Source: an uncultured Bacillales bacterium (lineage in GTDB: Bacteria; Bacillota_I; Bacilli_A; RF39; UBA660). Taken from it: a DNA stretch of 64,000 nt. Below are positions 155-42,550 of this stretch, one piece after another (position 1 is the stretch's first letter; each line of letters starts with the position of its first letter). The notes beneath the pieces were generated by a model. That model did not search any database, was not told the origin of the DNA, and saw nothing but the letters and a program-made list of their open reading frames with translations. Both the position numbers and the translations under genes were made by a program. The stretch covers positions 156-64,155 of the forward strand of contig CAMUXV010000002.1 in assembly GCA_947164795.1 (NCBI GenBank). The letters are read 5' to 3'.

Positions 155-463
155 ATGAGAAAGCTAAAAACAGGTGACAAAGTCGTAGTTGTTTCTGGCT
201 CAAATAAAGGTAAAGAAGGAAAAATACTAAAAGTATTAGAAGAAAAAGTACTTGTTGAAGGTATTAATATTGTTAAGAAACATTTAAAACCTAAAAAAAA
301 TAATGGAAATGGTGAAATTGTAGAAACTGAAGCACCTATTCATAAATCTAATGTAATGCTTTTAGATCCTAAGACTAAGAAACCTACGAAAGTAAAAATC
401 GAAACTGATAATAAAGGAAAAAAAGTTAGAATATCAAAAAAATCTAATGAAAAAATAGATTAA
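155..463 (+). CDS. rplX: 50S ribosomal protein L24
   Basis: KOW-type N-terminus [27 protein letters not shown] Shine-Dalgarno just upstream. Operon position is rplN-rplX-rplE. Confidence 0.95.
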
Positions 464-485
464 TTTGGAAGGAGGGCGTAGTTAA

Positions 486-1025
486 ATGAACCGCCTAAGA
501 GAAAAATATGTAAAAGAAGTTGTTCCAAGTTTAACAGAAAAATATAACTATAAGACACCTATGCTTGTTCCAAAACTAGAAAAAATAGTTGTTAATATGG
601 GAGTTGGAGATGCTACTGTTAACTCTAAGAACTTAGAGAATGCTGTTAAAGAATTAGAAAAAATAACAGGATTAAAAGCAGTAGAGACAACTGCTAAAAA
701 ATCAATAGCTTCATTTAAAATAAGAGAAGGACACAAAATTGGTTGTAAAGTAACTTTAAGAGGAGAGAGAATGTATAACTTCTTAGATAAGTTAATCAGT
801 ATTTCACTTCCTCGCGTAAGAGACTTTAGAGGCCTATCTCCAAAAAGTTTTGATGGAAGAGGAAATTATACAATCGGTATTAAAGAACAAATAATTTTCC
901 CTGAAATCAATTTTGATGAAGTTGAAAAAGTTAGAGGAATGGACGTAGTACTAGTAACTACTGCTAAAACTAACGAAGAAGCATTTGATTTATTAAAAGA
1001 ACTTGGAGTTCCTTTTAGGAAATAA
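486..1025 (+). CDS. rplE: 50S ribosomal protein L5
   Basis: 179 aa with a typical L5 sequence (NRLREKY...[14 protein letters not shown]...RGMDV). Conserved operon position. Confidence 0.95.
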
Positions 1026-1038
1026 GGAGATAAAGAAA

Positions 1039-1224
1039 ATGGCAAGAAAATCAATGATCGTAAAATCAGAAAGAGAACCTAAATTTAAGGTTAGAAAATA
1101 CACTAGATGTCAAATCTGTGGTAGACCTCATGCAGTTCTTAAAAAATATGGAATTTGCCGTATTTGCTTTAGAGAACTTGCATATAAAGGTCAAATACCT
1201 GGTGTAAAAAAGTCAAGTTGGTAA
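1039..1224 (+). CDS. rpsN: 30S ribosomal protein S14, short zinc-binding type Z
   Basis: 61 aa [61 protein letters not shown] with CxxC...CxxC. The ATG at 1039 follows AAGGAGA. The track start at 1003 overlaps rplE and is rejected. Confidence 0.9.
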
Positions 1225-1288
1225 TTTAATATTTTGTATGGATTATAAGAAGAATAAAAAGTTGGAACTTTATTAATATGAAGGGAAA

Positions 1289-1819
1289 ATGATTATGAAT
1301 AAAAGTAAGTTAGATAAATTAAAAGATATTATTAAGTTAAGTGCATTTTTTAATGTAGTTGATCTTGCAAATATTTTGTCAGAATTGATGACTGAAAAAG
1401 AAAAAAAAGATTATGTTCCAATGATTTGTCATAAGAGCATTTATAGAGAATTTAAGACTTATGTTGTTGTAGCAGAAAAATATTTGAGTGATGAAGAAAA
1501 AATGTATGGTGATTTAGTACCAGAAACTTGGGTGCACAATATGTTTAATTCTGGTTCATATTTTGGTATTTATCATTCTGACATTGAGAATGAAGATGTT
1601 CAAAATAAAGATGTTACATATGGTCTTGGTAGTGAATCAATATTTATTCCTACTAGTCATGGTTACATAAACAAATTTATGGATTATTTGTTTGCACTAC
1701 AACTTTCCAACAACGGAAAGCGTTTGACTTATGAAGAAATGCAAGTTGCATTAAATGATTTCTTAGAATTAGAAAAAGATAAACCAAAACAAAAGATTAA
1801 AAAGCCAAATAATAAATAA
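1289..1819 (+). CDS. Hypothetical protein (176 aa) embedded in the spc operon between rpsN and rpsH
   Basis: Long ORF with GAAGGGAAA upstream of the ATG. No terminator hairpin in either flanking gap (1225-1288, 1820-1853). I recognise no motif. Confidence 0.5.
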   Translation: MIMNKSKLDKLKDIIKLSAFFNVVDLANILSELMTEKEKKDYVPMICHKSIYREFKTYVVVAEKYLSDEEKMYGDLVPETWVHNMFNSGSYFGIYHSDIENEDVQNKDVTYGLGSESIFIPTSHGYINKFMDYLFALQLSNNGKRLTYEEMQVALNDFLELEKDKPKQKIKKPNNK

Positions 1820-1853
1820 TCGTAAGATAAGATAAAAGAAGGAGGGATTTAAG

Positions 1854-2243
1854 ATGACAGATCCAATCGCAGATATGCTTACAAGAATACGTAATGCTAA
1901 TCAAAATAGAGCAGCATCTGTTGAAGTTCCAGTATCTAATGTTAAATTAGAGATAGCTAGAATTTTAAAAGATGAAGGTTTTATTGAAAATTATGAAGTT
2001 ACGGGTGAAGGCGTACAAAAGATGATGACATTAACACTTAAATATAAAAATAAAGAAAGAGTAATTACTGGACTTAAGAGAATTTCAAAACCAGGACTTA
2101 GAGTATATTCTAAAGCTGAAGAATTACCTACAGTACTTAATGGTTTAGGAATTGCTATTATATCTACATCTAAAGGAATTATGACTGATAAAGAAGCTAG
2201 AAATAATTCTTTAGGTGGAGAAGTAATTGCTTATGTATGGTAA
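1854..2243 (+). CDS. rpsH: 30S ribosomal protein S8
   Basis: [15 protein letters not shown]... is the canonical S8 N-terminus. GAAGGAGGG RBS. Confidence 0.95.
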
Positions 2244-2249
2244 TAGAAT

Positions 2250-2789
2250 ATGAGTCGTATTGGTAAAAGAGAACTATCTATACCTGAAAATGTTAATGTT
2301 AATGTCGAAAATAATGTTGTAACTGTTAAAGGTCCTAAGGGAGAACTTACTTTAGAGACAGTTAAAAATATTAAAGTAACAGTAGAAAATAATACTGTTA
2401 AAGTAGAGCCTTTAAAAGAAGATAAATTTACTCATGCTATGCATGGAACTACTAATGCTAATATCAAAAATATGATTGATGGTGTTAGTAATGGTTATAA
2501 GAAGAGTTTAGAGATTGTTGGTGTAGGTTATAAGTTTAATGTTAGTGGTAACAAACTTACTGTATCAGCAGGATACTCTCACCCAGTTGTAATGGAAGTA
2601 CCTAATGGTCTTACTGTTAAGGGTGTAAGTAATACCGAGATTGATATTGAAGGTATTAGCAAAGAATTAGTTGGTGAATTTGCCGCTAATGTACGTAAGG
2701 TAAGAGGACCTGAACCATATAAAGGTAAAGGTATTAAGTATAAAGACGAACATATTCGTCGTAAAGAAGGAAAGAAAGCTTCTAAATAA
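2250..2789 (+). CDS. rplF: 50S ribosomal protein L6
   Basis: MSRIGKRELSIPENV...VKGPKGEL is a typical L6. Confidence 0.95.
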   Translation: MSRIGKRELSIPENVNVNVENNVVTVKGPKGELTLETVKNIKVTVENNTVKVEPLKEDKFTHAMHGTTNANIKNMIDGVSNGYKKSLEIVGVGYKFNVSGNKLTVSAGYSHPVVMEVPNGLTVKGVSNTEIDIEGISKELVGEFAANVRKVRGPEPYKGKGIKYKDEHIRRKEGKKASK

Positions 2790-2807
2790 TAAATAGGAGG
2801 AATTACT

Positions 2808-3170
2808 ATGATTAAGAAAGTTTCAAGAAATGAAATGAGAAAAGTAAGACACGAGAGAATCAGAGAAAATCTTTCTGGAACAGCAGAAAGACCAAGACTT
2901 TGCGTGTTTAGATCAAATGCTAATATTGAAGCTCAAATAATCGATGATGTTAAAGGTGTTACTTTAGTTAGTGCTACTTCTTTAGATAAGGATTTAAAAC
3001 TTAAAAATGGAAGTAACATTGAAGCTGCTAAAGTAGTTGGAGCAGAAATCGCTAAAAGAGCTAAAAAAGCAAAAATTACTACCGTTGTATTTGATAGAGG
3101 CGGATACCTTTATCATGGACGTGTTAAAGCTTTAGCAGAAGCTGCACGTGAAGGCGGATTAGAATTCTAG
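2808..3170 (+). CDS. rplR: 50S ribosomal protein L18
   Basis: [24 protein letters not shown]...[26 protein letters not shown] is a canonical L18. Confidence 0.95.
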
Positions 3171-3185
3171 AAGGAGGATAACTTC

Positions 3186-3809
3186 ATGAACGAAGAAATT
3201 AAGAATGAAGAAAAAGTTGTTAATACTGAAAAAGTAGAAAAAACTGAGAAGAAAGAATTAAAACCTCGTAAGTTCGATAATAAGAACAGAAAACCTAGAA
3301 ACAATGGTGAAAGAAAAGTTTCAAAACCTAAATCTGATTTAGAAGATAAGGTTATTGAAATTAGAAGAGTAACTAAAGTTGTTAAAGGTGGTAGACAATT
3401 TAGATTTGCTGCTACTGTAGTAGTAGGAAATAAGAAAGGTCTAGTTGGTTTAGGAACTGGTAAAGCACATGAAATGCCAGATGCAGTTAAAAAGGCTACA
3501 CAAGCAGCTACAAAGAATGTTGTTAAAATTGATTTAATTGATAACAGAACTATTTCACACGATATCACTGTTAAAGAAGGAGCAGTTAGAGTTATGCTTA
3601 AACCTGCTAAAGAAGGTACTGGAGTTAAAGCAGGAGGTCCTGTTAGGGATGTACTTGAATTAGCTGGCGTTAAAGATGTACTATCTAAGTCTTTAGGATC
3701 AAGTACTAAGATTAATGCTGCTAGAGCTACTCTAAGAGCATTAAAAGGTCAAAAGAGTCCTGAACATGTTGCATACTTAAGAGATAAGAAAGTAGAGGAA
3801 TTAAGATAA
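3186..3809 (+). CDS. rpsE: 30S ribosomal protein S5 with a ~45-aa K/E-rich N-terminal extension
   Basis: The S5 core begins at ...[31 protein letters not shown]. The protein is 207 aa versus about 166 aa for typical S5. Confidence 0.9.
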
Positions 3810-4252
3810 TGAAATTACATGAATTAGAAGCAGTATATGGCTCTACTAAAAATAGAAAAAGAGTAGGAAGAGGACAAGGTTCTGGTACTGGTAAAACAAG
3901 TGGTAAAGGTGAAAAAGGACAAAATGCTAGAAGTGGTGGAGGAGTAAGACCTGGTTTTGAAGGTGGACAACTTCCATTATTCAGAAGATTATCAAAGAGA
4001 GGATTTAATAACTATAACTTTAGAACAGTATATTCAACTGTAAATGTTGAAGACTTAAATAGATTTGAAGACGGTACTGTCGTAACAATTGAACTACTTA
4101 AAGAAGTAGGACTAATTAAGAAAGAATTAGATGGTGTTAAAGTAATGGGTAATGGTAAATTAGAAAAAAAACTTACTGTTAGAGCTAATGCTTTCACTAG
4201 AAGTGCTATAGAGAAAATTAATAATAATGGTGGAAAAACTGAGGTGATTTAG
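3809..4252 (+). CDS. rplO: 50S ribosomal protein L15
   Basis: [38 protein letters not shown] is a canonical L15. Its ATG overlaps the rpsE stop (TAATG), leaving no room for rpmD. Confidence 0.95.
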
Positions 4253-5515
4253 ATGTTTAAAAATCTAAAACTTATCTTTAGTCCAAAGAATAAGGATATT
4301 AGAAAAAGAATTGGTTTTACCTTATTTGGATTATTAGTATTCGCTATAGGTACAACCATTCCTGTTCCAGGAACTAAGGGAGCTATCTCTAGTCTTGGAT
4401 TATGGGAACTATATAATGCTATCGGAGGAGGAGCACTAAAGAACTTTTCAATATTTGCTCTAGGTGTTATGCCTTATATCTCCGCTAGTATCATTACTGG
4501 AATATTACAAATGGATATAATTCCTTACTTTACTGAACTTAAAGAGTCAGGTGAGCAAGGTAGACAAAAGATTAATCAAATAAATAGATATATAGGACTT
4601 GCAATAGCTTTTGTACAAGGTTTTGCTATGGCATTTACCTTTGTAAAAGGAGCAAGTACTATAGAGTACTTAAAGATAGCAGTAATATTAACTGCTGGTA
4701 CAGCATTCCTATTATGGCTAGGAGATCAAATTACTCAGAAAGGTATTGGTAATGGTATTTCACTACTTATTATGGCAGGTATTATTTATACTGTACCTAA
4801 GATGTTTATTGATACCTTTACTACATTAGTACTAGATCATACTGGATCATTATTCGTAGGAATAATTGGTTATGTAATTTTCGTACTAGTATATCTATTA
4901 ATAATTGTTGGAGTAGTATTTGAAGAATCTTCGGAAAGAAGAGTACCAATACAATACTCTAATAGAACTGCATCTGCTTATGGTGCTAAACAAAATTATA
5001 TTCCATTTAAGTTAAATTCTGCTGGTGTAATGCCTGTTATCTTTGCATCAGTAATATTAACTATTCCAACATTTATTGCTGGCTTACTAGGAGAAGAATC
5101 AGGATTTTCTGTATTCGTATCTAAATATATAAATTATACAACTCCAACTGGTTTTGTATTATATATAATATTAATATTTGTATTTGGATTCTTCTATACA
5201 AATATGCAAATAAATCCAAAGGAACTAGCTAAGAACTTAAATAAAAGTGGTGGCTATATCCCAGGAGTAAGACCAGGAGTAGAAACAGAAAAGTATATAA
5301 AGAAAATATTAAATAGAATAACACTACTTGGATCAATATTTATAGCGGTAATTGCAGCTCTTCCAATAGTATTTAGTAGTTTTATAAATACCGGACTACC
5401 AGCATCTGCTAGTATTGGTGGTACTGGAGTACTAATCGTTGTAGGTGTTGCAATTGAAACTTGTAAGCAACTTGAAAGTAGTTTAATAAATAGAAACTAT
5501 AAAGGAGCAAGATAA
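4253..5515 (+). CDS. secY: Preprotein translocase subunit SecY
   Basis: 420-aa polytopic membrane protein with typical SecY segments (GVMPYISASIITGILQ, GNGISLLIMAGI). Position is after rplO. Confidence 0.95.
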   Translation: MFKNLKLIFSPKNKDIRKRIGFTLFGLLVFAIGTTIPVPGTKGAISSLGLWELYNAIGGGALKNFSIFALGVMPYISASIITGILQMDIIPYFTELKESGEQGRQKINQINRYIGLAIAFVQGFAMAFTFVKGASTIEYLKIAVILTAGTAFLLWLGDQITQKGIGNGISLLIMAGIIYTVPKMFIDTFTTLVLDHTGSLFVGIIGYVIFVLVYLLIIVGVVFEESSERRVPIQYSNRTASAYGAKQNYIPFKLNSAGVMPVIFASVILTIPTFIAGLLGEESGFSVFVSKYINYTTPTGFVLYIILIFVFGFFYTNMQINPKELAKNLNKSGGYIPGVRPGVETEKYIKKILNRITLLGSIFIAVIAALPIVFSSFINTGLPASASIGGTGVLIVVGVAIETCKQLESSLINRNYKGAR

Positions 5516-6165
5516 TGAAGAATTTAATCTTTATCGCTCCTCCTGCTGCAGGAAAAGGAACTATCTCAGAGATGATTGAAAATAGATTTCATTTACCTCA
5601 TATCTCTACTGGTGATTTACTAAGAGATGAGATAGCTCATATGACAAAGTTAGGTCTAGAGATAAAAGATACGATGGCAAGAGGAGAATTTGTGTCTGAC
5701 GAGGTAATTACAAAATTATTAAAGAAGAGACTAAGTAGTAAAGATGTAAAAAAAGGTTATATCTTAGATGGATATCCTAGAAACATTAATCAAGCAAAAG
5801 AGTATGATAAATTGCTTGAAGAATTATCTTTTGATATGGGTAAAGTTATTTACCTAGTAATTGATAAAGAAACCGCTACTAAGAGAGCACTATCTAGAGT
5901 AGTATGTAAGAGTTGTGGTGCCAGTTATAACCTAAGTAATCCAGATTTATCTCCTGTTAGAGAAGGAATCTGTGATCATTGTAATAATGAACTTAGTGTA
6001 AGAAGCGATGACAACAAAGAGACATTTAAAACAAGATTTGATACTTATATGAAGGAAACTTATCCTCTAATAGAGTATTATAAAGAAAAGAATAATCTAA
6101 TAGAAATAGATGCATCTAAGAGTCCAAATGAGATATTTGAAGAAATTAAGAAGGTAATTAAATAA
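5515..6165 (+). CDS. adk: Adenylate kinase (Cys4 zinc lid)
   Basis: P-loop APPAAGKGT, then LRDE, DGYPR, and a lid CKSCG...CDHCN. Confidence 0.95.
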   Translation: MKNLIFIAPPAAGKGTISEMIENRFHLPHISTGDLLRDEIAHMTKLGLEIKDTMARGEFVSDEVITKLLKKRLSSKDVKKGYILDGYPRNINQAKEYDKLLEELSFDMGKVIYLVIDKETATKRALSRVVCKSCGASYNLSNPDLSPVREGICDHCNNELSVRSDDNKETFKTRFDTYMKETYPLIEYYKEKNNLIEIDASKSPNEIFEEIKKVIK

Positions 6166-6923
6166 TGATAACTATTAAAAGTGATTATGAATTATCTTTA
6201 ATGAGAATTGCAGGTAAGATAGTTTACGATACTCATCAGTACTTAAAACCTTTTATTAAAGAGGGTATAACTACTGGTGAGTTAGATAGACTAGCTCATG
6301 ACTATATAATTAGTAGGGATGCTTATCCATCTTGCTTAAATTATGAAGGATTTCCTAAAAGTATATGTATTTCAGTAAATGAAGAAGTAGTTCATGGTAT
6401 CCCAGGCAAAAGAAAACTTAAAAATGGAGATATCGTGACACTAGATATTTGTGCATGTTATAAAGGATATCATGGAGATTCAGCTTGGACTTATCCCGTA
6501 GGAGAAATCTCAGAAGATAAAAAATATCTTTTAGAACATACTGAAAAGGCATTATATGAAGGGTTATCTAAAATAAAAGATGGTGTAAGATTAGGAGACA
6601 TTAGCTCTGCTATTGAAGAATATGCGTGTAAGCATAAACTAGGAGTAGTAAGAGAACTAACTGGTCATGGAATAGGAAGTAATCTGCATGAAGATCCTGA
6701 TGTTCCGAACTTCGGAAAAAAAGGAACTGGTCCAGTACTTAAGAAAGGAATGACTATCGCAGTAGAACCTATGCTTAATCTAGGAACAAGAAAAATCTAT
6801 ATCTTAGATGATGACTGGACAATTATTACAGGTGATAATAAACCATCAGCCCACTTTGAACACACTGTAATAGTAACAGAAGATGGCTGTGAGATATTAA
6901 CAGGAGATGATAATATTGAGTAA
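6165..6923 (+). CDS. map: Methionine aminopeptidase type I
   Basis: Metal-ligand context [30 protein letters not shown]. Confidence 0.95.
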
Positions 6924-7134
6924 AGAAGATTTAATTGAAGTTGAAGGAAAAGTAATCGATAATTTACCTCAAGGAAAGTTCAAAGTTGAACTAGATGGAG
7001 GACACATCGTAGTGGCCCATGTTTCTGGTAAAATGCGCATGAATAACATACGTATCTTACCAGGTGATACGGTTGTTTTAGCAATGTCACCATATGATCT
7101 AACACAAGGGCGTATAGTTTATAATAAGAAATAG
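6916..7134 (+). CDS. infA: Translation initiation factor IF-1
   Basis: A TTG at 6916 sits 9 nt after AGGAG and gives the canonical 72-aa (M)[12 protein letters not shown]... The ATG at 6907 is a possible alternative start. Confidence 0.85.
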
Positions 7135-7146
7135 GAGTGATGATAA

Positions 7147-7260
7147 ATGAAAGTTAGAGCATCAGTAAAGAAAATTTGCGATAAATGCAAAATAATTAAA
7201 AGAAATGGAAAAGTAATGGTTATTTGTGAAAATCCAAAACACAAACAAAAACAAGGTTAA
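7147..7260 (+). CDS. rpmJ: 50S ribosomal protein L36 (not in the ORF track; 37 aa)
   Basis: Translates to [37 protein letters not shown]. Lies between infA and rpsM as expected. Confidence 0.9.
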
Positions 7261-7275
7261 TAGGAGGAACAAAAA

Positions 7276-7641
7276 ATGGCAAGAATTAAAGGTGTAGATA
7301 TTCCTAACGATAAGAGAATAGAAATCTCTCTTACATATATCTACGGTATTGGAAGACAATTATCAAAGAAAATCTTAAAAGATGCTAAAGTAAATTTAGA
7401 TACTAAAGCAAAAGACTTAACAGATGATGAACTTACTAGAATCAGAAAAGAAGTAGACAAACACTTAGTTGAAGGTGATCTTAGAAGAGAAGTTAATATG
7501 AACATTAAGACTAAGATGGAAATTAATTCTTATCAAGGTACTAGACATAAAAAAGGTTTACCTGTAAGAGGACAAAGAACTAGTAGAAATGCTAGAACTC
7601 GTAAAGGTAAAGGAAAGACTATTGCTAATAAGAAAAAATAA
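7276..7641 (+). CDS. rpsM: 30S ribosomal protein S13
   Basis: [26 protein letters not shown] is a canonical S13. Confidence 0.95.
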
Positions 7642-7654
7642 TTAGGAGGAAAGT

Positions 7655-8041
7655 ATGGGAAAATATAATTCAAGAAAAAGAAAAACTAAGAAGAATATTC
7701 CTGCTGGAGTTGCACATATACATTGTTCATTTAATAATACAATTGTAACTATTACTGACCTAGAAGGTAATGTAGTATCTTGGGCATCATCTGGTAAACA
7801 AGGAGTAAAAGGAAGTAAAAAATCTACTCCATTTGCTGCTGGTATGAGCGCTGAAGCTGCAGGAAGAGATGCTGTCGCAGCTGGTATGAAAACAGTTGAT
7901 GTATTTACTAAAGGTTTAGGAGCAGGTAAAGAAACTGCTGTTAGAAGTTTGCAAACTGCTGGATTAGAGATTAAATCAATAACAGATGTAACACCAATTC
8001 CACACAATGGTTGTCGTCCACCTAAAAGAAGACGTGGATAA
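7655..8041 (+). CDS. rpsK: 30S ribosomal protein S11
   Basis: [18 protein letters not shown]...[15 protein letters not shown] is a canonical S11. Confidence 0.95.
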
Positions 8042-8058
8042 TTAAAGGAGGAATTCAT

Positions 8059-9018
8059 ATGTTAAAATTTGAAAAACCAGATTATAAAATAAAAGAATAT
8101 GTTGAAGATAATTTCTATGGTAAATTTGTTTTAGAACCATTAGAGAGAGGTTTTGGAACAACTCTTGGTAATGCTCTTAGAAGAGTAATGCTATCTAGTT
8201 TACCAGGAGATGCAATTACTTCAGTTAAGATTGATGGAGTTGCTCACGAATTTCAAAAAATGGATGGAGTAATTGAAGATGTAACTGCTATCGTATTAAA
8301 CTTAAAGAGTATCGTTATCAAGAATCACGCAAGAGGAACTGATAAAACTTTATACTTAAAGAAGACTACTCCAGGAGTAGTAACTGCTGGTGATATTGAA
8401 AAAGATGCAGATATTGAAATATTAAATCCTGATCAAGTTATTTGTACAGTAGTAGAAGGTGGAAAATTAAACATGGAAATGACTGTATCAGATGGCCGTG
8501 GATATGTCGTAGCAGATGATAATAAGAAATTATTTAAAGATGATAAAACAAAAGTAGGAGCAATTGCTATCGATAGTTTATATTCTCCAATTGAAAGAAT
8601 TAACTATGAAGTAGAAAATGCTCGTGTTGGACAAAATAATAACTATGATAAGCTTACAATGGAAGTTTGGACAAATGGTTCAATTATGCCAGAAGAAGCA
8701 ATGGCTCTTGGAGCACGTATTCTTATGGAACATTTAGAAGTTATCACTGACTTAAATTCAATCGCTGATGAAACTGGTCTTATGATAGCTAAAAGTGAAG
8801 ATCCTATTGTTAAGATGCTAGATACTTCTATCGATGACTTAGATTTCTCTGTAAGAGCATATAACTGCTTAAAGAGAGCAAATATTATGACATTAAGAGA
8901 TTTAACTGAGAAGACTGAAACAGAAATGATGAAAATTAGAAATCTTGGTAAGAAATCACTTAAAGAAGTTATTGATAAAGTAAAAGATATGGGTCTTACA
9001 TTTAAAGATGAAAATTAG
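8059..9018 (+). CDS. rpoA: DNA-directed RNA polymerase alpha subunit
   Basis: 319 aa. N-terminal domain LERGFGTTLGNALRRVMLSSLPG. C-terminal domain LDFSVRAYNCLKRANI. Confidence 0.95.
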   Translation: MLKFEKPDYKIKEYVEDNFYGKFVLEPLERGFGTTLGNALRRVMLSSLPGDAITSVKIDGVAHEFQKMDGVIEDVTAIVLNLKSIVIKNHARGTDKTLYLKKTTPGVVTAGDIEKDADIEILNPDQVICTVVEGGKLNMEMTVSDGRGYVVADDNKKLFKDDKTKVGAIAIDSLYSPIERINYEVENARVGQNNNYDKLTMEVWTNGSIMPEEAMALGARILMEHLEVITDLNSIADETGLMIAKSEDPIVKMLDTSIDDLDFSVRAYNCLKRANIMTLRDLTEKTETEMMKIRNLGKKSLKEVIDKVKDMGLTFKDEN

Positions 9019-9032
9019 TATAGGAGGAAATT

Positions 9033-9374
9033 ATGGCATATAGAAAATTAGGTAGAGAAACTAGACATAGAAGAAGTATGCTTTCTAATATGACAAGAGA
9101 ACTTATTTCTAAAGAGAGAATAGTTACTACTGAAACAAGAGCTAAAGAAGTAAGAAAAAGCTTTGATAAAATGGTAACTTATGGTAAAAAAGGTACTCTA
9201 GTTTCAAGAAGACTTGCTCTAGCATTTTTAGAAAATGACAAAAAAGCAGTAGAGAAAGTATTTAATGAATTAGCACCAAGATATAAGGATAGAAATGGTG
9301 GTTATACAAGAATTATTAAAATGACTGAAAGAAAAGGAGATAACGCTCTAGAAGTTATTTTAGAATTAGTTTAA
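9033..9374 (+). CDS. rplQ: 50S ribosomal protein L17
   Basis: [20 protein letters not shown]... is a canonical L17. Confidence 0.95.
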
Positions 9375-36984: not shown

Positions 36985-37905
36985 ATGCAAACAGTAAATA
37001 CAGTAAAATTGAGTGTTAAAAATAGAGAAATATTAGATAATTTTCAAATGTATTTAATAACTGTAAAGCATATGAATGATGAATCTTCCTCATATTCATA
37101 TACAGATGATATTTATAAATATTTAGAATATTTGGAAAAATGTAATATAAAAGATACCACTAATATTAATGAAAAAGATATAATAAATTATTTGAAATAT
37201 TTAGATGATAATAATTATGAAACATCTTCTATGGCTCGAAAAATAGTTTCCATTAAATCATTTCATTCATTTTTAGAGGAAACATATCATATACAAGATA
37301 TATCACTAAAAATAAATAGCCCAAAATTCTATCGTAAATTACCTGACATACTAAGTATTGAAGAAGTAGATATTCTTCTTGATATCAAAACGGAAAATGC
37401 CTATGATTACCGAAATAAAGCTATGTTAGAACTCATGTATTCATCAGGACTTAGAGTAAGTGAACTAGTAAGTTTAGATTTAAAGGATATTGATTTAGAA
37501 AACAAAATAGTAAGATGTATCGGTAAGGGAAAAAAAGAAAGAATAGTTCCTATTGGTGATTATGCATTAGATTATTTAAAAAAATATATTGAAGAATATA
37601 GACCATTATTAAAGAAAAAATATTATACTGAAAAATTATTTTTAAATAATCATGGTAAAGAAATAACTAGACAAGGATTCTTTCTAATAATTAAAAAAAT
37701 TGCCAAAGAAAAGAATATAGAAAAGAATATAACGCCACATATGCTAAGGCATTCCTTTGCTACTCATCTTTTAAATAATGGAGCAGATCTTCGTACAATA
37801 CAAGAGATGTTAGGACATTCTAATATTTCAACTACTCAAATATATACTAATTTAACAACAGATATATTAAAAGAAAACTATAAATTATATGAAAGAAGGG
37901 ATTAA
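36985..37905 (+). CDS. xerD: Tyrosine recombinase XerD/RipX-like
   Basis: Catalytic RHRY context: ...GLRVSELVSLDL..., HMLRHSFATHLLNNGADLRTIQEMLGHSNISTTQIYT. N-terminal SAM-like domain. Assigned XerD rather than XerC by the spoIIM/phosphomutase neighbourhood, as for B. subtilis ripX. Confidence 0.8.
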   Translation: MQTVNTVKLSVKNREILDNFQMYLITVKHMNDESSSYSYTDDIYKYLEYLEKCNIKDTTNINEKDIINYLKYLDDNNYETSSMARKIVSIKSFHSFLEETYHIQDISLKINSPKFYRKLPDILSIEEVDILLDIKTENAYDYRNKAMLELMYSSGLRVSELVSLDLKDIDLENKIVRCIGKGKKERIVPIGDYALDYLKKYIEEYRPLLKKKYYTEKLFLNNHGKEITRQGFFLIIKKIAKEKNIEKNITPHMLRHSFATHLLNNGADLRTIQEMLGHSNISTTQIYTNLTTDILKENYKLYERRD

Positions 37906-37906
37906 T

Positions 37907-39274
37907 ATGCAGCTTAATAAATTAATGTTTAGAGAATATGACATAAGAGGAATATGGCAAAAAGATATAAATGAAGAAATAGCATATCATATTGGTAGGG
38001 CGTATGCTACAAAACTACTAAGTTTTAATAAAAATAAAATGATCGTGGGTTATGATAATAGATTATCTTCTAAAGTAATCGAAGAAAACTTAGTAAAAGG
38101 ATTAACTGATGGAGGAGTTGATGTAGTTAGATTAGGTTTAGTTACTACTCCTATGTATTATTATGCTTGGGATGTTCTCAATATCAAATGTGGCATAATG
38201 ATAACAGCTTCACATAATCCCAAAGAGTATAATGGCTTTAAAATGAGTTATAATGGCATTCATAACTGTTTTGGTAAAGATGTAAGTGATTTATACTATG
38301 TAATAATAAATGGCATCTACAGCGAAGGAAATGGCGCTATAGAAGAATACAATATTAGAGAAGATTATATTAAAATGATACATAATCATATTAATATGGG
38401 AAATAATAAATTAAAAGTAGTATATGATTGCGGTAATGGAACTACCAGCATAATAGCTAAAGATATTTTCGTATCAAATGATAAAATTCAATATATACCA
38501 TTATATGCAGATTCAGATGGAACATTTCCAAATCATCATCCAGATCCTGCTGTTGAAGAAAATCTAAAACAGTTAAAAGAAAAAGTACTAGAAGTACATG
38601 CTGATTGCGGTATCGCCTTTGATGGAGATGGGGATAGGATAGGGGTAGTCGACAATTTAGGAAAGATGATTCCAATAGATCAATTTATGATTATTATATG
38701 GAGAGATATTTATAATAAAGTAAAAATTAAAAAAGGGTTTTACGATATAAAATGTTCAAATGCATTACGAGATGAATTAGTAAAATTAGATATTGAACCA
38801 ATTGAAACCAGAAGTGGAAATTCTTATACTAAACTAATTTCCTATGAAAACAATTATCCATTTGGTGGGGAATTATCTGGCCACCTATATTTTAGAGATA
38901 GATTCATCGGTACAGATGATGGCATATATGCAGGTCTTAGAATGGTAGAATTATTATCTAGAGTCAATAAAAAAGCATCAGAATTATTAGATGGAATAAA
39001 TAAATACTATTCTACACCTGAAGGTAAAATAGAAGTATCAGATACTAAAAAAGAACAAATAGTAAGTAGAGTAGAGGAGTACTGTATAAATAAAGCATAT
39101 ACCTACTCTAAAATAGACGGAATTAAAATATTATATGAAGATGGATTTGCTTTAATAAGAAAATCAAATACATCTCCTAATATTACATTTAGGTATGAAG
39201 CAAAAACTAAAGAACGATTAGATGAATTAAAAGCAGAATATAATGCATTACTAAATAAATTAAAAGAAGAGTAG
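37907..39274 (+). CDS. Phosphoglucomutase/phosphomannomutase-family alpha-D-phosphohexomutase
   Basis: FREYDIRG, active-site TASHNPKEYNGFK, metal loop FDGDGDR, sugar loop GGELSGH. ATG at 37907 follows AAGAAGGGA. Confidence 0.85.
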   Translation: MQLNKLMFREYDIRGIWQKDINEEIAYHIGRAYATKLLSFNKNKMIVGYDNRLSSKVIEENLVKGLTDGGVDVVRLGLVTTPMYYYAWDVLNIKCGIMITASHNPKEYNGFKMSYNGIHNCFGKDVSDLYYVIINGIYSEGNGAIEEYNIREDYIKMIHNHINMGNNKLKVVYDCGNGTTSIIAKDIFVSNDKIQYIPLYADSDGTFPNHHPDPAVEENLKQLKEKVLEVHADCGIAFDGDGDRIGVVDNLGKMIPIDQFMIIIWRDIYNKVKIKKGFYDIKCSNALRDELVKLDIEPIETRSGNSYTKLISYENNYPFGGELSGHLYFRDRFIGTDDGIYAGLRMVELLSRVNKKASELLDGINKYYSTPEGKIEVSDTKKEQIVSRVEEYCINKAYTYSKIDGIKILYEDGFALIRKSNTSPNITFRYEAKTKERLDELKAEYNALLNKLKEE

Positions 39275-39290
39275 GGAGTACCCTACTTTT
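39271..39290. terminator. Bidirectional terminator between the convergent phosphomutase gene and the small ORF
   Basis: GTAGGG-AGTA-CCCTAC followed by TTTT. Confidence 0.7.
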
Positions 39291-39294
39291 CATT

Positions 39295-39459
39295 TTAGTG
39301 GCAATTATTATTGTTTTGAGAACTACGATTATTACTCTTACTACTAGAGTTCATTGAACTAGTTTGATTACTAGATTCTAAATTATCAAAATTTCTATTA
39401 TTATTATTTTGATTAGATTTAGAATTCATGTTTGAATTCATTTCATTTCTTTTACTCAT
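39295..39459 (-). CDS. Small Asn/Ser-rich hydrophilic protein (54 aa; below the ORF-track cutoff)
   Basis: Minus-strand ATG at 39459 is preceded by GGAGGT with 8-nt spacing. Translates to MSKRNEMNSNMNSKSNQNNNNRNFDNLESSNQTSSMNSSSKSNNRSSQNNNNCH*. Confidence 0.45.
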   Translation of the reverse strand: MSKRNEMNSNMNSKSNQNNNNRNFDNLESSNQTSSMNSSSKSNNRSSQNNNNCH

Positions 39460-39552
39460 TTTAATTACCTCCATTAATATTATTAACTAACTATTTAATT
39501 ATATACGATAGAAGGTATAGTAAATATTTACCATTATTACATTCTATTTAGA

Positions 39553-39580
39553 ACTTAACATAATATTAATTATAGGAACC
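39553..39580 (-). other. dif: dif-like XerC/XerD chromosome-dimer resolution site
   Basis: Minus-strand 28-mer GGTTCCTATAA-TTAATA-TTATGTTAAGT. The XerD arm matches E. coli TTATGTTAAAT at 10/11. The whole site matches 22/28 to E. coli dif and 22/28 to the Staphylococcus/Bacillus-type ACTTCCTATAATATATATTATGTAAACT (as I recall them). It lies in the ORF-free gap where gene orientation converges. Confidence 0.6.
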
Positions 39581-39746
39581 TAAATATTTTATAAATAAAT
39601 GATTAATTATTCATCTAAAAATAAATAAAAAGATAATAAAATTATAAATAATAAACATACTAATAATACAGTTATAATTCTTATATTAAATTAATATCAA
39701 GACACATTAAATATTATCTTATCCCATATATAAAAATAAATATAAA

Positions 39747-39785
39747 TAAAAAAAGCAATGGATAAATTAATTATCTTTATCCATT
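39747..39785 (-). terminator. Rho-independent terminator downstream of the HTH gene
   Basis: AATGGATAAA / TTTATCCATT is a perfect 10-bp stem, followed on the minus strand by GC and TTTTTTT. A second hairpin CCCCTA...TAGGGG lies at 39832-39862. Confidence 0.6.
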
Positions 39786-39869
39786 ATAATATTTTAAAAC
39801 TAATAATATGAAATTAATAAAATATATATATCCCCTATTTTTATAAAAATTTAAAGTAGGGGACTAATT

Positions 39870-40664
39870 TTAAAATTTTGCAGACATAATTTCCGCTATC
39901 TTATCTAATACTTCACCAGCATTTTTTTCATCTATTTTATCATATCCAAGTTCTCTTAATGCTCTAAATTTAGCAGTATTTAATTCTTGAGTACGAGACA
40001 TTTTTTCTTCTTTTTTAGCAGCCAAAACTTCTTCCCAGCGCCTATGAGATTCCGCTAGTTTCGAACGTGAGGCTCCCCCATTACCATACAATGTAATAGC
40101 AGAAAACATGATGCTCTCAAAAATAAATTGATTATTTTCATCAAATATATATTTATTAGGAGAAGTATATCCAAAGTTCTTTGAGAAGAAAGCCAATATA
40201 TATTTTAATTCTTTATTAGTATTCAAATTTTGAATAAAATTGTAAACATATTCTACTAATGCTGAATTTTCTTCGCTTCTCCCCTTCCCTTCCACTAATA
40301 TATTTTTTAACATAATCGCAATATCATTAATTAATCTAGACTCTTCTTTATCCAATCCAGATAAATCAATAGATACATTTTCTTTTGATTTATCATTAGA
40401 AGTAACCTTTTTATCAGTAAATATCTTACTTGACACTTCTTTTAAATAATCACTTGTAATTTGTTTTTTAATAATTTCTTCTTTTGAAGAAACGCCTAAT
40501 AAATCAAATAATAGTTTACACTTTTCTTTAGGAAATTTTGACAAATCATCGCCATCTAAATAATTATAAACCATTTGTCTAGATACTCCTAAATACTTTG
40601 ATAAATTAACTTTAGAAATACTTGCTTCTTTTAGTATTTGATTTATTTTATCAATAACATTCAT
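39870..40664 (-). CDS. HTH-domain protein of unknown function (264 aa)
   Basis: N-terminal XRE-like HTH ISKVNLSKYLGVSRQMVYNYLDG. Start is at 40664 (AGGAGG plus 9 nt). The track extension to 40757 has no RBS. Confidence 0.6.
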   Translation of the reverse strand: MNVIDKINQILKEASISKVNLSKYLGVSRQMVYNYLDGDDLSKFPKEKCKLLFDLLGVSSKEEIIKKQITSDYLKEVSSKIFTDKKVTSNDKSKENVSIDLSGLDKEESRLINDIAIMLKNILVEGKGRSEENSALVEYVYNFIQNLNTNKELKYILAFFSKNFGYTSPNKYIFDENNQFIFESIMFSAITLYGNGGASRSKLAESHRRWEEVLAAKKEEKMSRTQELNTAKFRALRELGYDKIDEKNAGEVLDKIAEIMSAKF

Positions 40665-40790: not shown

Positions 40791-41873
40791 TTACAAACCG
40801 TTCGTATCCTTAATAATACCACCGCCAAGACAAATATCGCCATCATATAATACACAAAATTGGCCTGGTGTCACTGCCCTTACACCATTATATTTTACTT
40901 TTATAGTATTATTATCCAAATATTCAACTTCAATCTTAATATCTGGCTGTCTATATCTAAATTTACATGTACATTTATTTGGCCTTTCCTCAGTCATGTA
41001 ATTAAATTCTTCAATAATAGCTTCAGTACTATATAGAGAGCTACTGTCATCACCTATAGCCACATATAATATATTTTTATCCAAATCTTTTTTTACAACA
41101 AAGCATCTATTTTCTGTACCACCAATATTAAGACCTCTTCTTTGACCAATTGTATAATACATAAGTCCAATATGTTTTCCCAGCTTCTCCCCAGTATCAA
41201 TATTAACTATATCACCTGGTATATTTGGTAAATAATTTTCCAAAAATTTGGTGAAGTTTCTTTCGCCAATAAAACAAATGCCCGTCGAGTCTTTCTTTCT
41301 AGCGGTAACGAGTCCAAACTGCTCTGCTATTTTTCTTACTTCTGGCTTTTCCATCTCTCCTAATGGAAATAAGACATCTTTAAAAATATCTTTATCAACA
41401 TAAGCAAGGAAATAAGACTGATCTTTATTTAAATCCTTAGCCTTAGCTAGCTTTCCGTCTTTTATTCTAGCATAATGACCTGTAGCAATGTAATCTGCCT
41501 TTAACTCTTTAGCTTTTTTATAAAATAAGTCGAACTTAATATACTTATTGCACATAACATCAGGATTGGGTGTTCTTCCCTTTTTTAATTCATCTAAAAA
41601 ATACGTAAAGACAAAATCCCAATATTCTCTAACAAAATCAACGCGATGAAGAGGAATACCAATTTTATTGCAAACTTCAAGAGCATCATTATAATCCTTT
41701 TCCTGAGGGCAAATATCATTATCTAAATTAGGATTACCCAAATAATCATTATTAATAGTACTATCCCAGTTACGCATAAAAAGGCCTACTACATTATAGC
41801 CCTGCTCTTTTAACAATATCGCAGCAACAGAAGAATCAACTCCTCCTGACATACCAATAACAACGGTTTTCAT
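40791..41873 (-). CDS. mnmA: tRNA-specific 2-thiouridylase MnmA
   Basis: PP-loop [15 protein letters not shown], plus NPDVMCN and TGHYAR motifs. Confidence 0.95.
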
Positions 41874-41917
41874 ACTACTACCCTCTTTCAGGTAATAATT
41901 ATATCATAAAATTAAAA

Positions 41918-42550
41918 TTAAATAAACAATTTTATAACTAATTTCATCATTGAGGGAAGTAAAAAGGCTTCTGAAAGAGATGAAACAGTAATAATACTAA
42001 AGGATATTAATAGTATTAATAAATATTTTTTTATATAACTTTTTAAAATAATATTATTAGCCTTATTAAAAATGCTTTTAAACAGCATAATAGAAAAAGT
42101 AAATGAATAAACACTAATTATTATTATCATTAAAAAATTAATTATAGTAGTGGGAAACACATAAATAAATGATGAAATAATACCCTTATAACCATAAACC
42201 GCTATAAAAGAAGAAATAGTAAAACCCACTATAAAGCCTTTTAAATATGTTAAAAATATATTAAAAACAATTCCAATAATTGAAGCACCTAATAACCATA
42301 TAAGTATAATGTATAAAGAATTTTCAATAAAAGCATTTTTAAGTGCATCAATATTATTTATTTTATTTGTATTAATATTAGACATAAAACTAGTAATTTT
42401 AGATGAAACTAATTCTTTGTCGCTGCTATTTAAAATAATTAAAAAAATAGTACCAGATATTATACCTAACAATATTATAAATATCACAAATAAATTAATC
42501 TTTTTATTAGGAAGAACTATGCTTAGAAAATTATTAAATCTATTTTTCAT
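41918..42550 (-). CDS. spoIIM: Stage II sporulation protein M-like membrane protein
   Basis: 210-aa polytopic protein collinear with SpoIIM: LKGFIVGFTISSF (Bacillus LKGVVVGFTVGFL) and SEAFLLPSMMKLVI (Bacillus IEAYLSPVLMEKVV). Confidence 0.7.
   Translation of the reverse strand: MKNRFNNFLSIVLPNKKINLFVIFIILLGIISGTIFLIILNSSDKELVSSKITSFMSNINTNKINNIDALKNAFIENSLYIILIWLLGASIIGIVFNIFLTYLKGFIVGFTISSFIAVYGYKGIISSFIYVFPTTIINFLMIIIISVYSFTFSIMLFKSIFNKANNIILKSYIKKYLLILLISFSIITVSSLSEAFLLPSMMKLVIKLFI

Follow-up and report, generated by a model that had tools for sequence, protein, structure and literature searches.

The 64-kb stretch of DNA analysed here (64,000 nucleotides of contig CAMUXV010000002.1 from an uncultured Bacillales bacterium, referred to below as the window) raises the question whether a 28-bp sequence at 39553..39580 on its minus strand is a dif site, the chromosomal site at which Xer recombination resolves dimers, as an earlier note made from the sequence alone had proposed. 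We consider it very probable that the 28-mer serves as dif on the chromosome of its host, an uncultured gut bacterium that is a low-GC, sporulation-gene-bearing member of the class Bacilli. The support that was observed consists of the sequence match to published sites, a switch of strand bias, conservation in the lineage, an intact xerD gene and recombination products in relatives. The window dif is of the canonical XerCD/CodV-RipX type, which is a well-understood kind of element, and the identification is unusually well supported because small viruses were found inserted at exactly the same site in relatives.

Read on the minus strand from 39580 to 39553, the site is GGTTCCTATAA-TTAATA-TTATGTTAAGT, and the 11-6-11 layout described in the earlier note is present at this position. 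It is composed of an XerC/CodV-type arm GGTTCCTATAA (39580..39570), a central region TTAATA (39569..39564) and an XerD/RipX-type arm TTATGTTAAGT (39563..39553), with the trinucleotide TCT directly outside the XerD arm (39550..39552), all on the minus strand. The two 11-bp arms have imperfect dyad symmetry about the 6-bp centre, are unlike at 4 of their 11 positions and follow the consensus of the phylum. Reference dif sites were taken from Kono et al. 2011, Additional file 2 (PMC3025954). With the Escherichia coli dif (GGTGCGCATAATGTATATTATGTTAAAT) the XerD arm agrees at 10 of 11 positions, so the figure given in the earlier note is borne out by the published sequence. The likeness of the XerC arm to the Staphylococcus/Bacillus-type dif, which had been claimed for TTCCTATAA, stood for Staphylococcus aureus (ACTTCCTATAATATATATTATGTAAACT), where this stretch is common to both sites, but not entirely for Bacillus subtilis, whose counterpart TTCCTAGAA has one mismatch. 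The closest whole-site matches were those of B. halodurans (GGTTCCTATAATATATATTATGTAAACT) and Desulfotomaculum reducens, with 24/28 identical positions each; the XerC arm of the window is identical to that of B. halodurans, and its XerD arm to that of Moorella thermoacetica. Folding of the site as single-stranded DNA gave nothing beyond shuffled sequences.

Near-palindromes rich in A and T are common in a genome of about 26% GC, and the gap that contains the site has 14% GC, which would favour a chance palindrome as the explanation. A position weight matrix (PWM) was derived from 41 distinct dif sites published for Firmicutes, and both strands of the window were scored with it. The site reached 30.4 bits, compared with 26.9-41.8 bits for the training sites, and the runner-up on either strand reached 6.6 bits, which leaves a margin of 24 bits. 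In 300 first-order Markov sequences of 64 kb with the same composition, the top score had a mean of 7.3 and a highest value of 24.9, and none (0/300) attained 30.4. Given these results, and the retention of the 28-mer amid unalignable flanks in relatives (below), the explanation by chance is effectively refuted. The dif-like 28-mer is real, and as the only strong hit it also answers, within the window, the concern of the earlier note that equal matches or many similar AT-rich 28-mers might occur elsewhere.

Conservation was followed in related loci (L-numbers), which were collected by a scan with the XerD protein, taking one genome per species; this gave 80 loci of about 20 kb each, 10 kb on either side. 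They belong to uncultured metagenome-assembled genomes (MAGs) of 22-34% GC, with XerD identities of 44-86%, which are labelled as Bacilli, Tenericutes/Mollicutes, Erysipelotrichaceae, UBA660 or Clostridium sp. CAG:914. Two of the 80 loci are on contigs of chromosome scale, OZ007025.1 (1.34 Mb) and DAJPHG010000001.1 (1.19 Mb); a Hadza contig of 1.00 Mb is a further relative of this kind. At a PWM threshold of at least 16 bits, 43 of the 80 xerD-anchored loci had a dif site, most of them scoring 28-41 bits with second-best scores below 10. The site was located downstream of xerD, mostly by 1-3 kb, in 41 of the 59 loci having at least 5 kb of sequence 3' of xerD. Altogether the 28-mer is kept in about 100 related loci, whose diverged non-coding flanks could not be aligned. 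When the loci were aligned on dif, information content was confined to the 28 positions and TCT: positions 29-31, which had not been used in selecting the sites, showed a relative entropy of 0.6-1.1 bits, compared with about 0.1 bit per column in the flanks. TCT (sometimes TGT) was kept outside the XerD arm in both orientations of dif, and also in the phage attachment sites described below. The conservation of TCT together with the site suggests a conserved unit of about 31 bp, and the functional unit may be 31 bp as well. The lineage consensus is ACTTCCTATAA-TNNATA-TTATGTTAACT-TCT; it varies in the central region, which is also where the published sites vary. In the closest relatives, L001 (AGTTCC...) and L002 (ACTTCC...), the central region and XerD arm are the same as in the window.

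The gene order found in relatives is rarA (reverse), xerD and then pgm and/or a ZIP transporter gene (forward), dif, and the gene of a helix-turn-helix (HTH) protein, mnmA and spoIIM (all reverse). In the related loci the 3' end was directed toward dif for xerD in 66/66 cases and for the HTH gene in 82/82 cases. Since xerD-anchored sampling is biased, metagenome contigs were also scanned with the dif pattern TTCCTATAATNNATATTATGTTAAST, which was present in at least 120 contigs, one copy each. Among the low-GC contigs anchored on dif in this way with at least 3.5 kb on both sides, xerD was found in 10/13 and the HTH gene in 12/13. Related contigs have a single dif each, save those with a phage inserted. 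The pattern was also present in contigs of 33-60% GC that do not have the xerD/HTH neighbours, which fits the wide conservation of the Firmicutes-type dif noted by Kono et al. (PMC3025954).

The orientation of the same dif variant was flipped between the same flanking genes in 10/43 loci of one sample (L022, L025, L026, L029, L034, L050, L052, L061, L067 and L068) and in 2/23 of another. The short segment bearing dif has been inverted repeatedly. These rearrangements bear on another explanation, namely that the 28-mer is an operator for the HTH protein or the promoter of a small open reading frame (ORF) of 54 aa near it, and that its likeness to dif is coincidental. The site is indeed located 94 bp upstream of the small ORF, and a weak promoter-like match (TTAATA-17-TAGAAT, 9/12) overlaps it, but the region has only 11 promoter-like matches, compared with 16.6 after shuffling. 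The HTH gene is likewise a conserved neighbour of dif. However, the site is found either way round between unchanged flanking genes, at distances of about 40 bp to several kb from the HTH gene and at the 3' end of that gene, and in L075 the HTH operon has moved off while dif is still with xerD. Moreover, the sequence of the 28-mer is that of dif across phyla, and the insertion of phages with hybrid junctions, described next, is a matter of recombination and not of regulation. We regard a regulatory role for the 28-mer as highly improbable, and a dif site as the explanation to be retained.

Insertions at dif were recognised in four strains of one species (L210-L213), which had been found via contigs encoding a homologue of the HTH protein (P0078). 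The site is empty in L211-L213, where it reads ...tatctt ACTTCCTATAA TTAATA TTATGTTAAGT tctgttttgaaggg... and differs from the window only at positions 1-2. In L210 it has received an insert of 5.07 kb (L210:11094-16221; empty counterpart L211:11082-11109). At the left junction, the host flank is followed by the host XerC arm, the central region, an XerD arm with C in place of G at position 27, and foreign DNA. At the right junction, foreign DNA is followed by TGTCTTGATAC, TTAATA and the host XerD arm TTATGTTAAGT (G at position 27), after which the host flank resumes exactly. This pattern of arms and position 27 places the crossover between the XerC arm and position 27, central region included. 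Judged from the junctions, this is the location that Xer-type strand exchange predicts, and the insertion can be read as a natural Xer footprint. The insert encodes a rolling-circle Rep (PF23343, phrog_3419), a Zot-like ATPase (PF05707 above cutoff, phrog_197), an HTH_3 repressor, several small membrane proteins, and a 70-aa protein with a hydrophobic core and a basic C-terminus, which looks like a major coat protein. No match to a tyrosine recombinase or integrase family was obtained among the 10 scanned ORFs of the insert, which resembles a filamentous phage; the element must therefore rely on the recombinase of its host, that is, it would be one of the integrative mobile elements that exploit Xer (IMEX).

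A full and a hybrid site in direct orientation, 4.6-5.0 kb apart, were also found at L025:12855-17454, L102:6957-11882 and L121:1199-6219, and the elements between them have several genes in common with the L210 insert. Inserts at dif are thus present in at least four related loci, with sizes of 4.6-5.1 kb. In addition, genes of related elements adjoin dif in L085, which is an IMG/VR contig, as well as in L137 and L156; a Rep gene alone does so in L052 and L206. The dif-inserted elements are probably IMEX of uncultured gut Bacilli, and small elements resembling filamentous phages have inserted at dif time and again in these bacteria. The hybrid sites (L210:16194-16221, L102:11855-11882, L121:6192-6219 and L025:17427-17454) have a central region, XerD arm and TCT identical or nearly so to those of the host, and their element-derived XerC-side arms (TGTCTTGATAC, AGTCCGTATAC, AGTCCGCATAC and CTTTAATATTG) agree with the host arm at 4-7 of 11 positions. 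This degeneracy on the XerC side is the most unusual observation made here. An excised element of the L210 type would carry the circular junction TGTCTTGATAC-TTAATA-TTATGTTAACT-TCTAAAAG.

In the 64-kb window neither a second dif-like site nor homologues of the element proteins were found. The window site is therefore an empty dif (an empty attB), and its interpretation as an IMEX junction was rejected on these grounds, there being no partner site and no element genes. A plasmid site of the cer/psi type was rejected as well, given the chromosomal housekeeping context (ribosomal proteins, secY, rpoA, ligA, secDF, relA, tRNA synthetases) and the unconserved flanks. In Legionellales, dif has been identified by the same phage-insertion logic (PMC9765430). 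Other viral contigs also contain dif-like sites. In L082, an IMG/VR contig of 41% GC, two identical inverted dif-like sites (2063-2090 and 2417-2444) are about 330 bp apart; L081, L083 and L088 have single dif-like sites where the GC skew runs from negative to positive, the reverse of the usual direction. All of these may be attachment sites used by elements of other hosts.

A dif site would be expected at the replication terminus, and the gene orientation described in the earlier note was confirmed in this respect: of the ORFs accepted as genes, 40 to the left of dif are on the plus strand and 3 on the minus strand, and 24 to the right are on the minus strand and 3 on the plus strand. In 2-kb windows, GC skew was between +0.1 and +0.3 as far as 39 kb and between -0.2 and -0.3 beyond it, with a step from +0.21 to -0.24 across dif itself. 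The cumulative GC-skew maximum of the 64 kb is at 39,278, which is 288 bp from the centre of dif and agrees, within the window, with the extremum at about 39.5 kb that the earlier note had asked for. Because skew also tracks gene orientation, the genes were split by side and orientation. The skew at third codon positions (GC3 skew, read on the plus strand) was +0.06 for left plus-strand genes, -0.20 for left minus-strand genes, -0.13 for right plus-strand genes and -0.43 for right minus-strand genes, so that, for either orientation, the left side is higher than the right by about 0.2. The effect of side, put at about 0.1, is independent of orientation and consistent with a real replication-strand switch to which an effect of transcription is added. 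Few genes are counter-oriented (92 and 176 G+C third positions), and GC3 skew does not place the switch more finely. Furthermore, the skew changes from positive to negative at dif in 19/25 related low-GC loci. The conclusion that the window dif is located at a junction resembling a replication terminus is supported by these observations.

The recombinase gene near the site is xerD (36985..37905, plus strand), which encodes a tyrosine recombinase of 306 aa and has its 3' end toward dif. The protein scored 329.7 bits on TIGR02225 (cutoff 329.6) and 286 bits, below the cutoff, on the XerC model. It matched the structure of E. coli XerD (1A0P) at E = 8e-53, and R, K, H-x-x-R, H and Y all coincided in the alignment, which indicates that the genome encodes an XerD with complete catalytic residues. 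The distance from the end of xerD (37905) to dif is 1,648 bp, as measured against the 1.6 kb given in the earlier note. By analogy with CodV/RipX-Bsdif of B. subtilis and XerCD-dif of E. coli, the two dif copies of dimeric sister chromosomes would be brought together at the division septum. A recombinase of the XerC/CodV type would bind the arm GGTTCCTATAA, and XerD, whose gene is 1.65 kb away, would bind TTATGTTAAGT and probably also the TCT next to it. Strand exchange at the borders of the 6-bp TTAATA would then resolve the dimer. In B. subtilis, CodV binds the left half-site and RipX the right one, and exchange takes place at the 6-bp central region (PMC5357621). The assignment of the arms, the XerC partner, the order of cleavage and the control by a translocase of the FtsK/SpoIIIE type are transferred to the window host by this analogy.

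The closeness of xerD and dif also suggests another possibility, in which the site is a real dimer-resolution site served by XerD alone, as in the single-recombinase modules XerS/difSL or XerH/difH. The linkage at 1-3 kb is kept across the lineage, whereas XerCD genes are classically distant from dif (PMC1914069); on the other hand, at least one gene is located between xerD and dif, and one subclade does not have the linkage. No second Xer gene was found by tblastn in the xerD-anchored loci of about 20 kb each, but xerC is not expected near xerD anyway. The genomes of the lineage are small, about 1.0-1.3 Mb. The phage attachment sites, which combine a perfect XerD arm and central region with a degenerate XerC-side arm, would also fit recombination by XerD alone. 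However, in the hosts the XerC-side arm ACTTCCTATAA is conserved as strongly as the XerD arm, and it is the same arm as that bound by CodV/XerC in Bacillus/Staphylococcus. Moreover, the two arms are unlike at 4/11 positions as in two-recombinase sites, and the known single-recombinase systems use atypical sites. Such modules consist of an atypical site abutting a dedicated divergent gene, an arrangement that is not found here. Since the site is canonical and genes intervene, membership in the single-recombinase family is not supported, and we judge this possibility improbable. We also entertained the idea that the terminus module of xerD, dif and the HTH gene, taken with the XerC-side-degenerate attachment sites, reflects XerD-first or XerD-only recombination unlike that in the E. 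coli/Vibrio models; this is a tentative and on the whole unlikely suggestion.

Several points weigh against the identification of the 28-mer as the chromosomal dif site. The evidence comes from a 64-kb window of a contig of about 65 kb, and a better dif or skew extremum may be located elsewhere on the replicon. No xerC, ftsK or spoIIIE gene was found in the 64 kb. GC skew largely tracks gene orientation and is positive again at 57-60 kb, where the genes are on the plus strand, and the few minus-strand genes of the left arm show no GC3 skew of the replication type. The S10-spc-alpha/secY/adk/rpoA/rplQ cluster is located at 155-9374, only about 30 kb from dif. This cluster is near the origin in most Firmicutes, and its proximity to a terminus is unusual. 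The recombination footprint was obtained from related species and not from the window genome. Finally, no dif is found up to 10 kb from xerD in a subclade (L005, L009-L014 and L016-L018); the xerD-dif linkage is therefore broken there and not universal. The XerD proteins of this subclade are 55-63% identical to that of the window, the gene order is xerD-pgm-tcdA, and the HTH-mnmA-spoIIM neighbours are absent. As for the motifs that guide translocases, GAGAAGGG and GGGNAGGG have 0-1 occurrences in the window of 26% GC, and GAAGAAG, whose counts are confounded with coding strand, was counted at 26/5 to the left of dif and 3/6 to its right.

The immediate surroundings of dif agree for the most part with the earlier description. 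The site is contained in an AT-rich non-coding interval (39460..39869) of 410 bp and 14.4% GC, confirming the coding-free gap of about 400 bp; just one ORF of at least 20 aa was present in it, with 20 aa and overlapping the left edge, and no Rfam family was matched in it at E <= 1. The gap had been said to be bounded by terminators. Its left edge is instead formed by the ribosome-binding site (RBS) and start of the 54-aa small ORF (39295..39459, minus strand, RBS GGAGG), whose start codon is 94 bp from dif, with dif upstream. At its right edge, a hairpin that immediately follows the HTH stop codon (39830..39864, minus strand, -11.8 kcal/mol) is a plausible terminator of the minus-strand operon, although it is not distinguished from shuffled sequences (z = -1.2). 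The last plus-strand gene before dif is a gene of the phosphoglucomutase/phosphomannomutase family (pgm, 37889..39274), which in many relatives also stands between xerD and dif. It is followed by a predicted bidirectional terminator-like hairpin (39266..39291). Since this hairpin lies beyond the 54-aa ORF, the strict convergence of transcription falls at 39275-39294, some 260 bp left of dif. The site is therefore between the plus-strand and the minus-strand genes as claimed, but not exactly at the point of convergence. A 20-nt inverted repeat (39277-39296 and 39846-39865, 85% complementary), built from halves of the two terminator-like hairpins, encloses the small ORF, dif and the AT-rich gap.

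The small ORF had no family match. A counterpart of 54 residues was called as a gene at the same place in GCA_016648615.1, and a homologous ORF of 53 aa adjoins dif in L211-L213, with an identical sequence from RBS to start (GGAGGTAATTAAAATGAGTAA). The window product is rich in Asn and Ser, that of L211 (L211:11220-11381) in Cys and His. On the other side of dif, the first minus-strand gene (39870..40664), with its 3' end toward dif, encodes the HTH protein of 264 aa. This protein has a very conserved N-terminal Cro/C1-type HTH (ISKVKLAKYLGVSRQMVYNYL) and is all-helical in the remainder. It has 4,727 homologues, of which the few named are called 'hypothetical protein'. No Pfam family was above cutoff and no PDB entry was matched by sequence, even with a profile. 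AlphaFold gave a predicted local distance difference test (pLDDT) score of 53 from the single sequence, which is poor, and of 69.6 with 32 homologues, at a predicted template modelling (pTM) score of 0.38. A Foldseek comparison with the PDB returned the N-terminal Cro/C1 HTH only, with nothing at E <= 0.001. The next genes, mnmA and spoIIM (40791..42550, minus strand), are conserved minus-strand neighbours. The window further contains a portion of the S10-spc-alpha cluster of ribosomal protein genes, including secY, adk, rpoA and rplQ, and also htpG, ligA, secDF, relA, two class II tRNA synthetase genes and the sporulation genes spoIIM, spoIVB and yqfD together with sigma factors.

The site shows where replication probably terminates in one member of a large group of uncultured gut Bacilli with small genomes, a group known only from metagenomes. 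In practice, it can be used for orienting and closing MAG assemblies, for peak-to-trough growth estimates and for spotting prophages at dif. The understanding of Xer recombination is changed neither by the proximity of xerD and dif nor by phage insertion at dif. In the incomplete collection of literature that was searched, no account of dif or IMEX in these uncultured Bacilli was found.

A published prediction exists for Acholeplasma laidlawii (AGTGCCTATAATGTATATTATGTTAACC), a Mollicutes relative of the uncultured Bacilli orders. It is identical to the window site at 22/28 positions, both being predictions only, and is located 0.04 degrees from the GC-skew shift point (PMC3025954); linkage to xerD is unreported there. 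In the same survey, the dif predictions for Clostridium botulinum strains are 137-175 degrees from the shift point and none is given for C. perfringens or C. beijerinckii (PMC3025954), so that dif in Clostridium sensu stricto is not settled by Kono et al. The dif/XerCD/FtsK system of E. coli has the same architecture, with an XerD arm identical at 10/11 positions and a location at the junction of oppositely polarised replichores, but its XerC arm is GGTGCGCATAA instead of GGTTCCTATAA. The modules XerS/difSL (Streptococci/Lactococci) and XerH/difH resemble the window in that a recombinase gene is linked to the terminus site. However, their sites are atypical (difSL has 31 bp) and immediately upstream of the gene, and their recombinases are unrelated to or divergent from XerCD, whereas the window has a canonical site, an XerD orthologue and at least one intervening gene.

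The elements found at dif are like the characterised IMEX classes in being small, integrase-less and flanked by a full and a hybrid site. In those classes the attP keeps the XerC side and diverges on the XerD side (PMC5357621), whereas here the XerC-side arm is degenerate, and the hosts are uncultured gut Bacilli of the Gram-positive type. Filamentous phages of Gram-positive gut bacteria are known from a paper that makes no mention of dif or Xer (PMC10061712). Classical xer genes are described as far from dif (PMC1914069), and Kono et al. place xerD nearer the origin (PMC3025954); unlike this classical picture, xerD is separated from dif by no more than a few kb in much of the present lineage. 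Among the closest known systems is Bsdif/CodV/RipX of B. subtilis, also a member of Firmicutes/Bacilli. It differs from the lineage in that xerD is here 1-3 kb from dif, that TCT extends the XerD side, and that CodV and SftA/SpoIIIE were not seen in the window. Its site (ACTTCCTAGAATATATATTATGTAAACT) likewise measures 28 bp, arranged as 11-6-11, agrees with the window site at 21/28 positions and is located, as here, at the skew switch. The XerD orthologue also retains spoIIM in its neighbourhood, as in the B. subtilis gene order.

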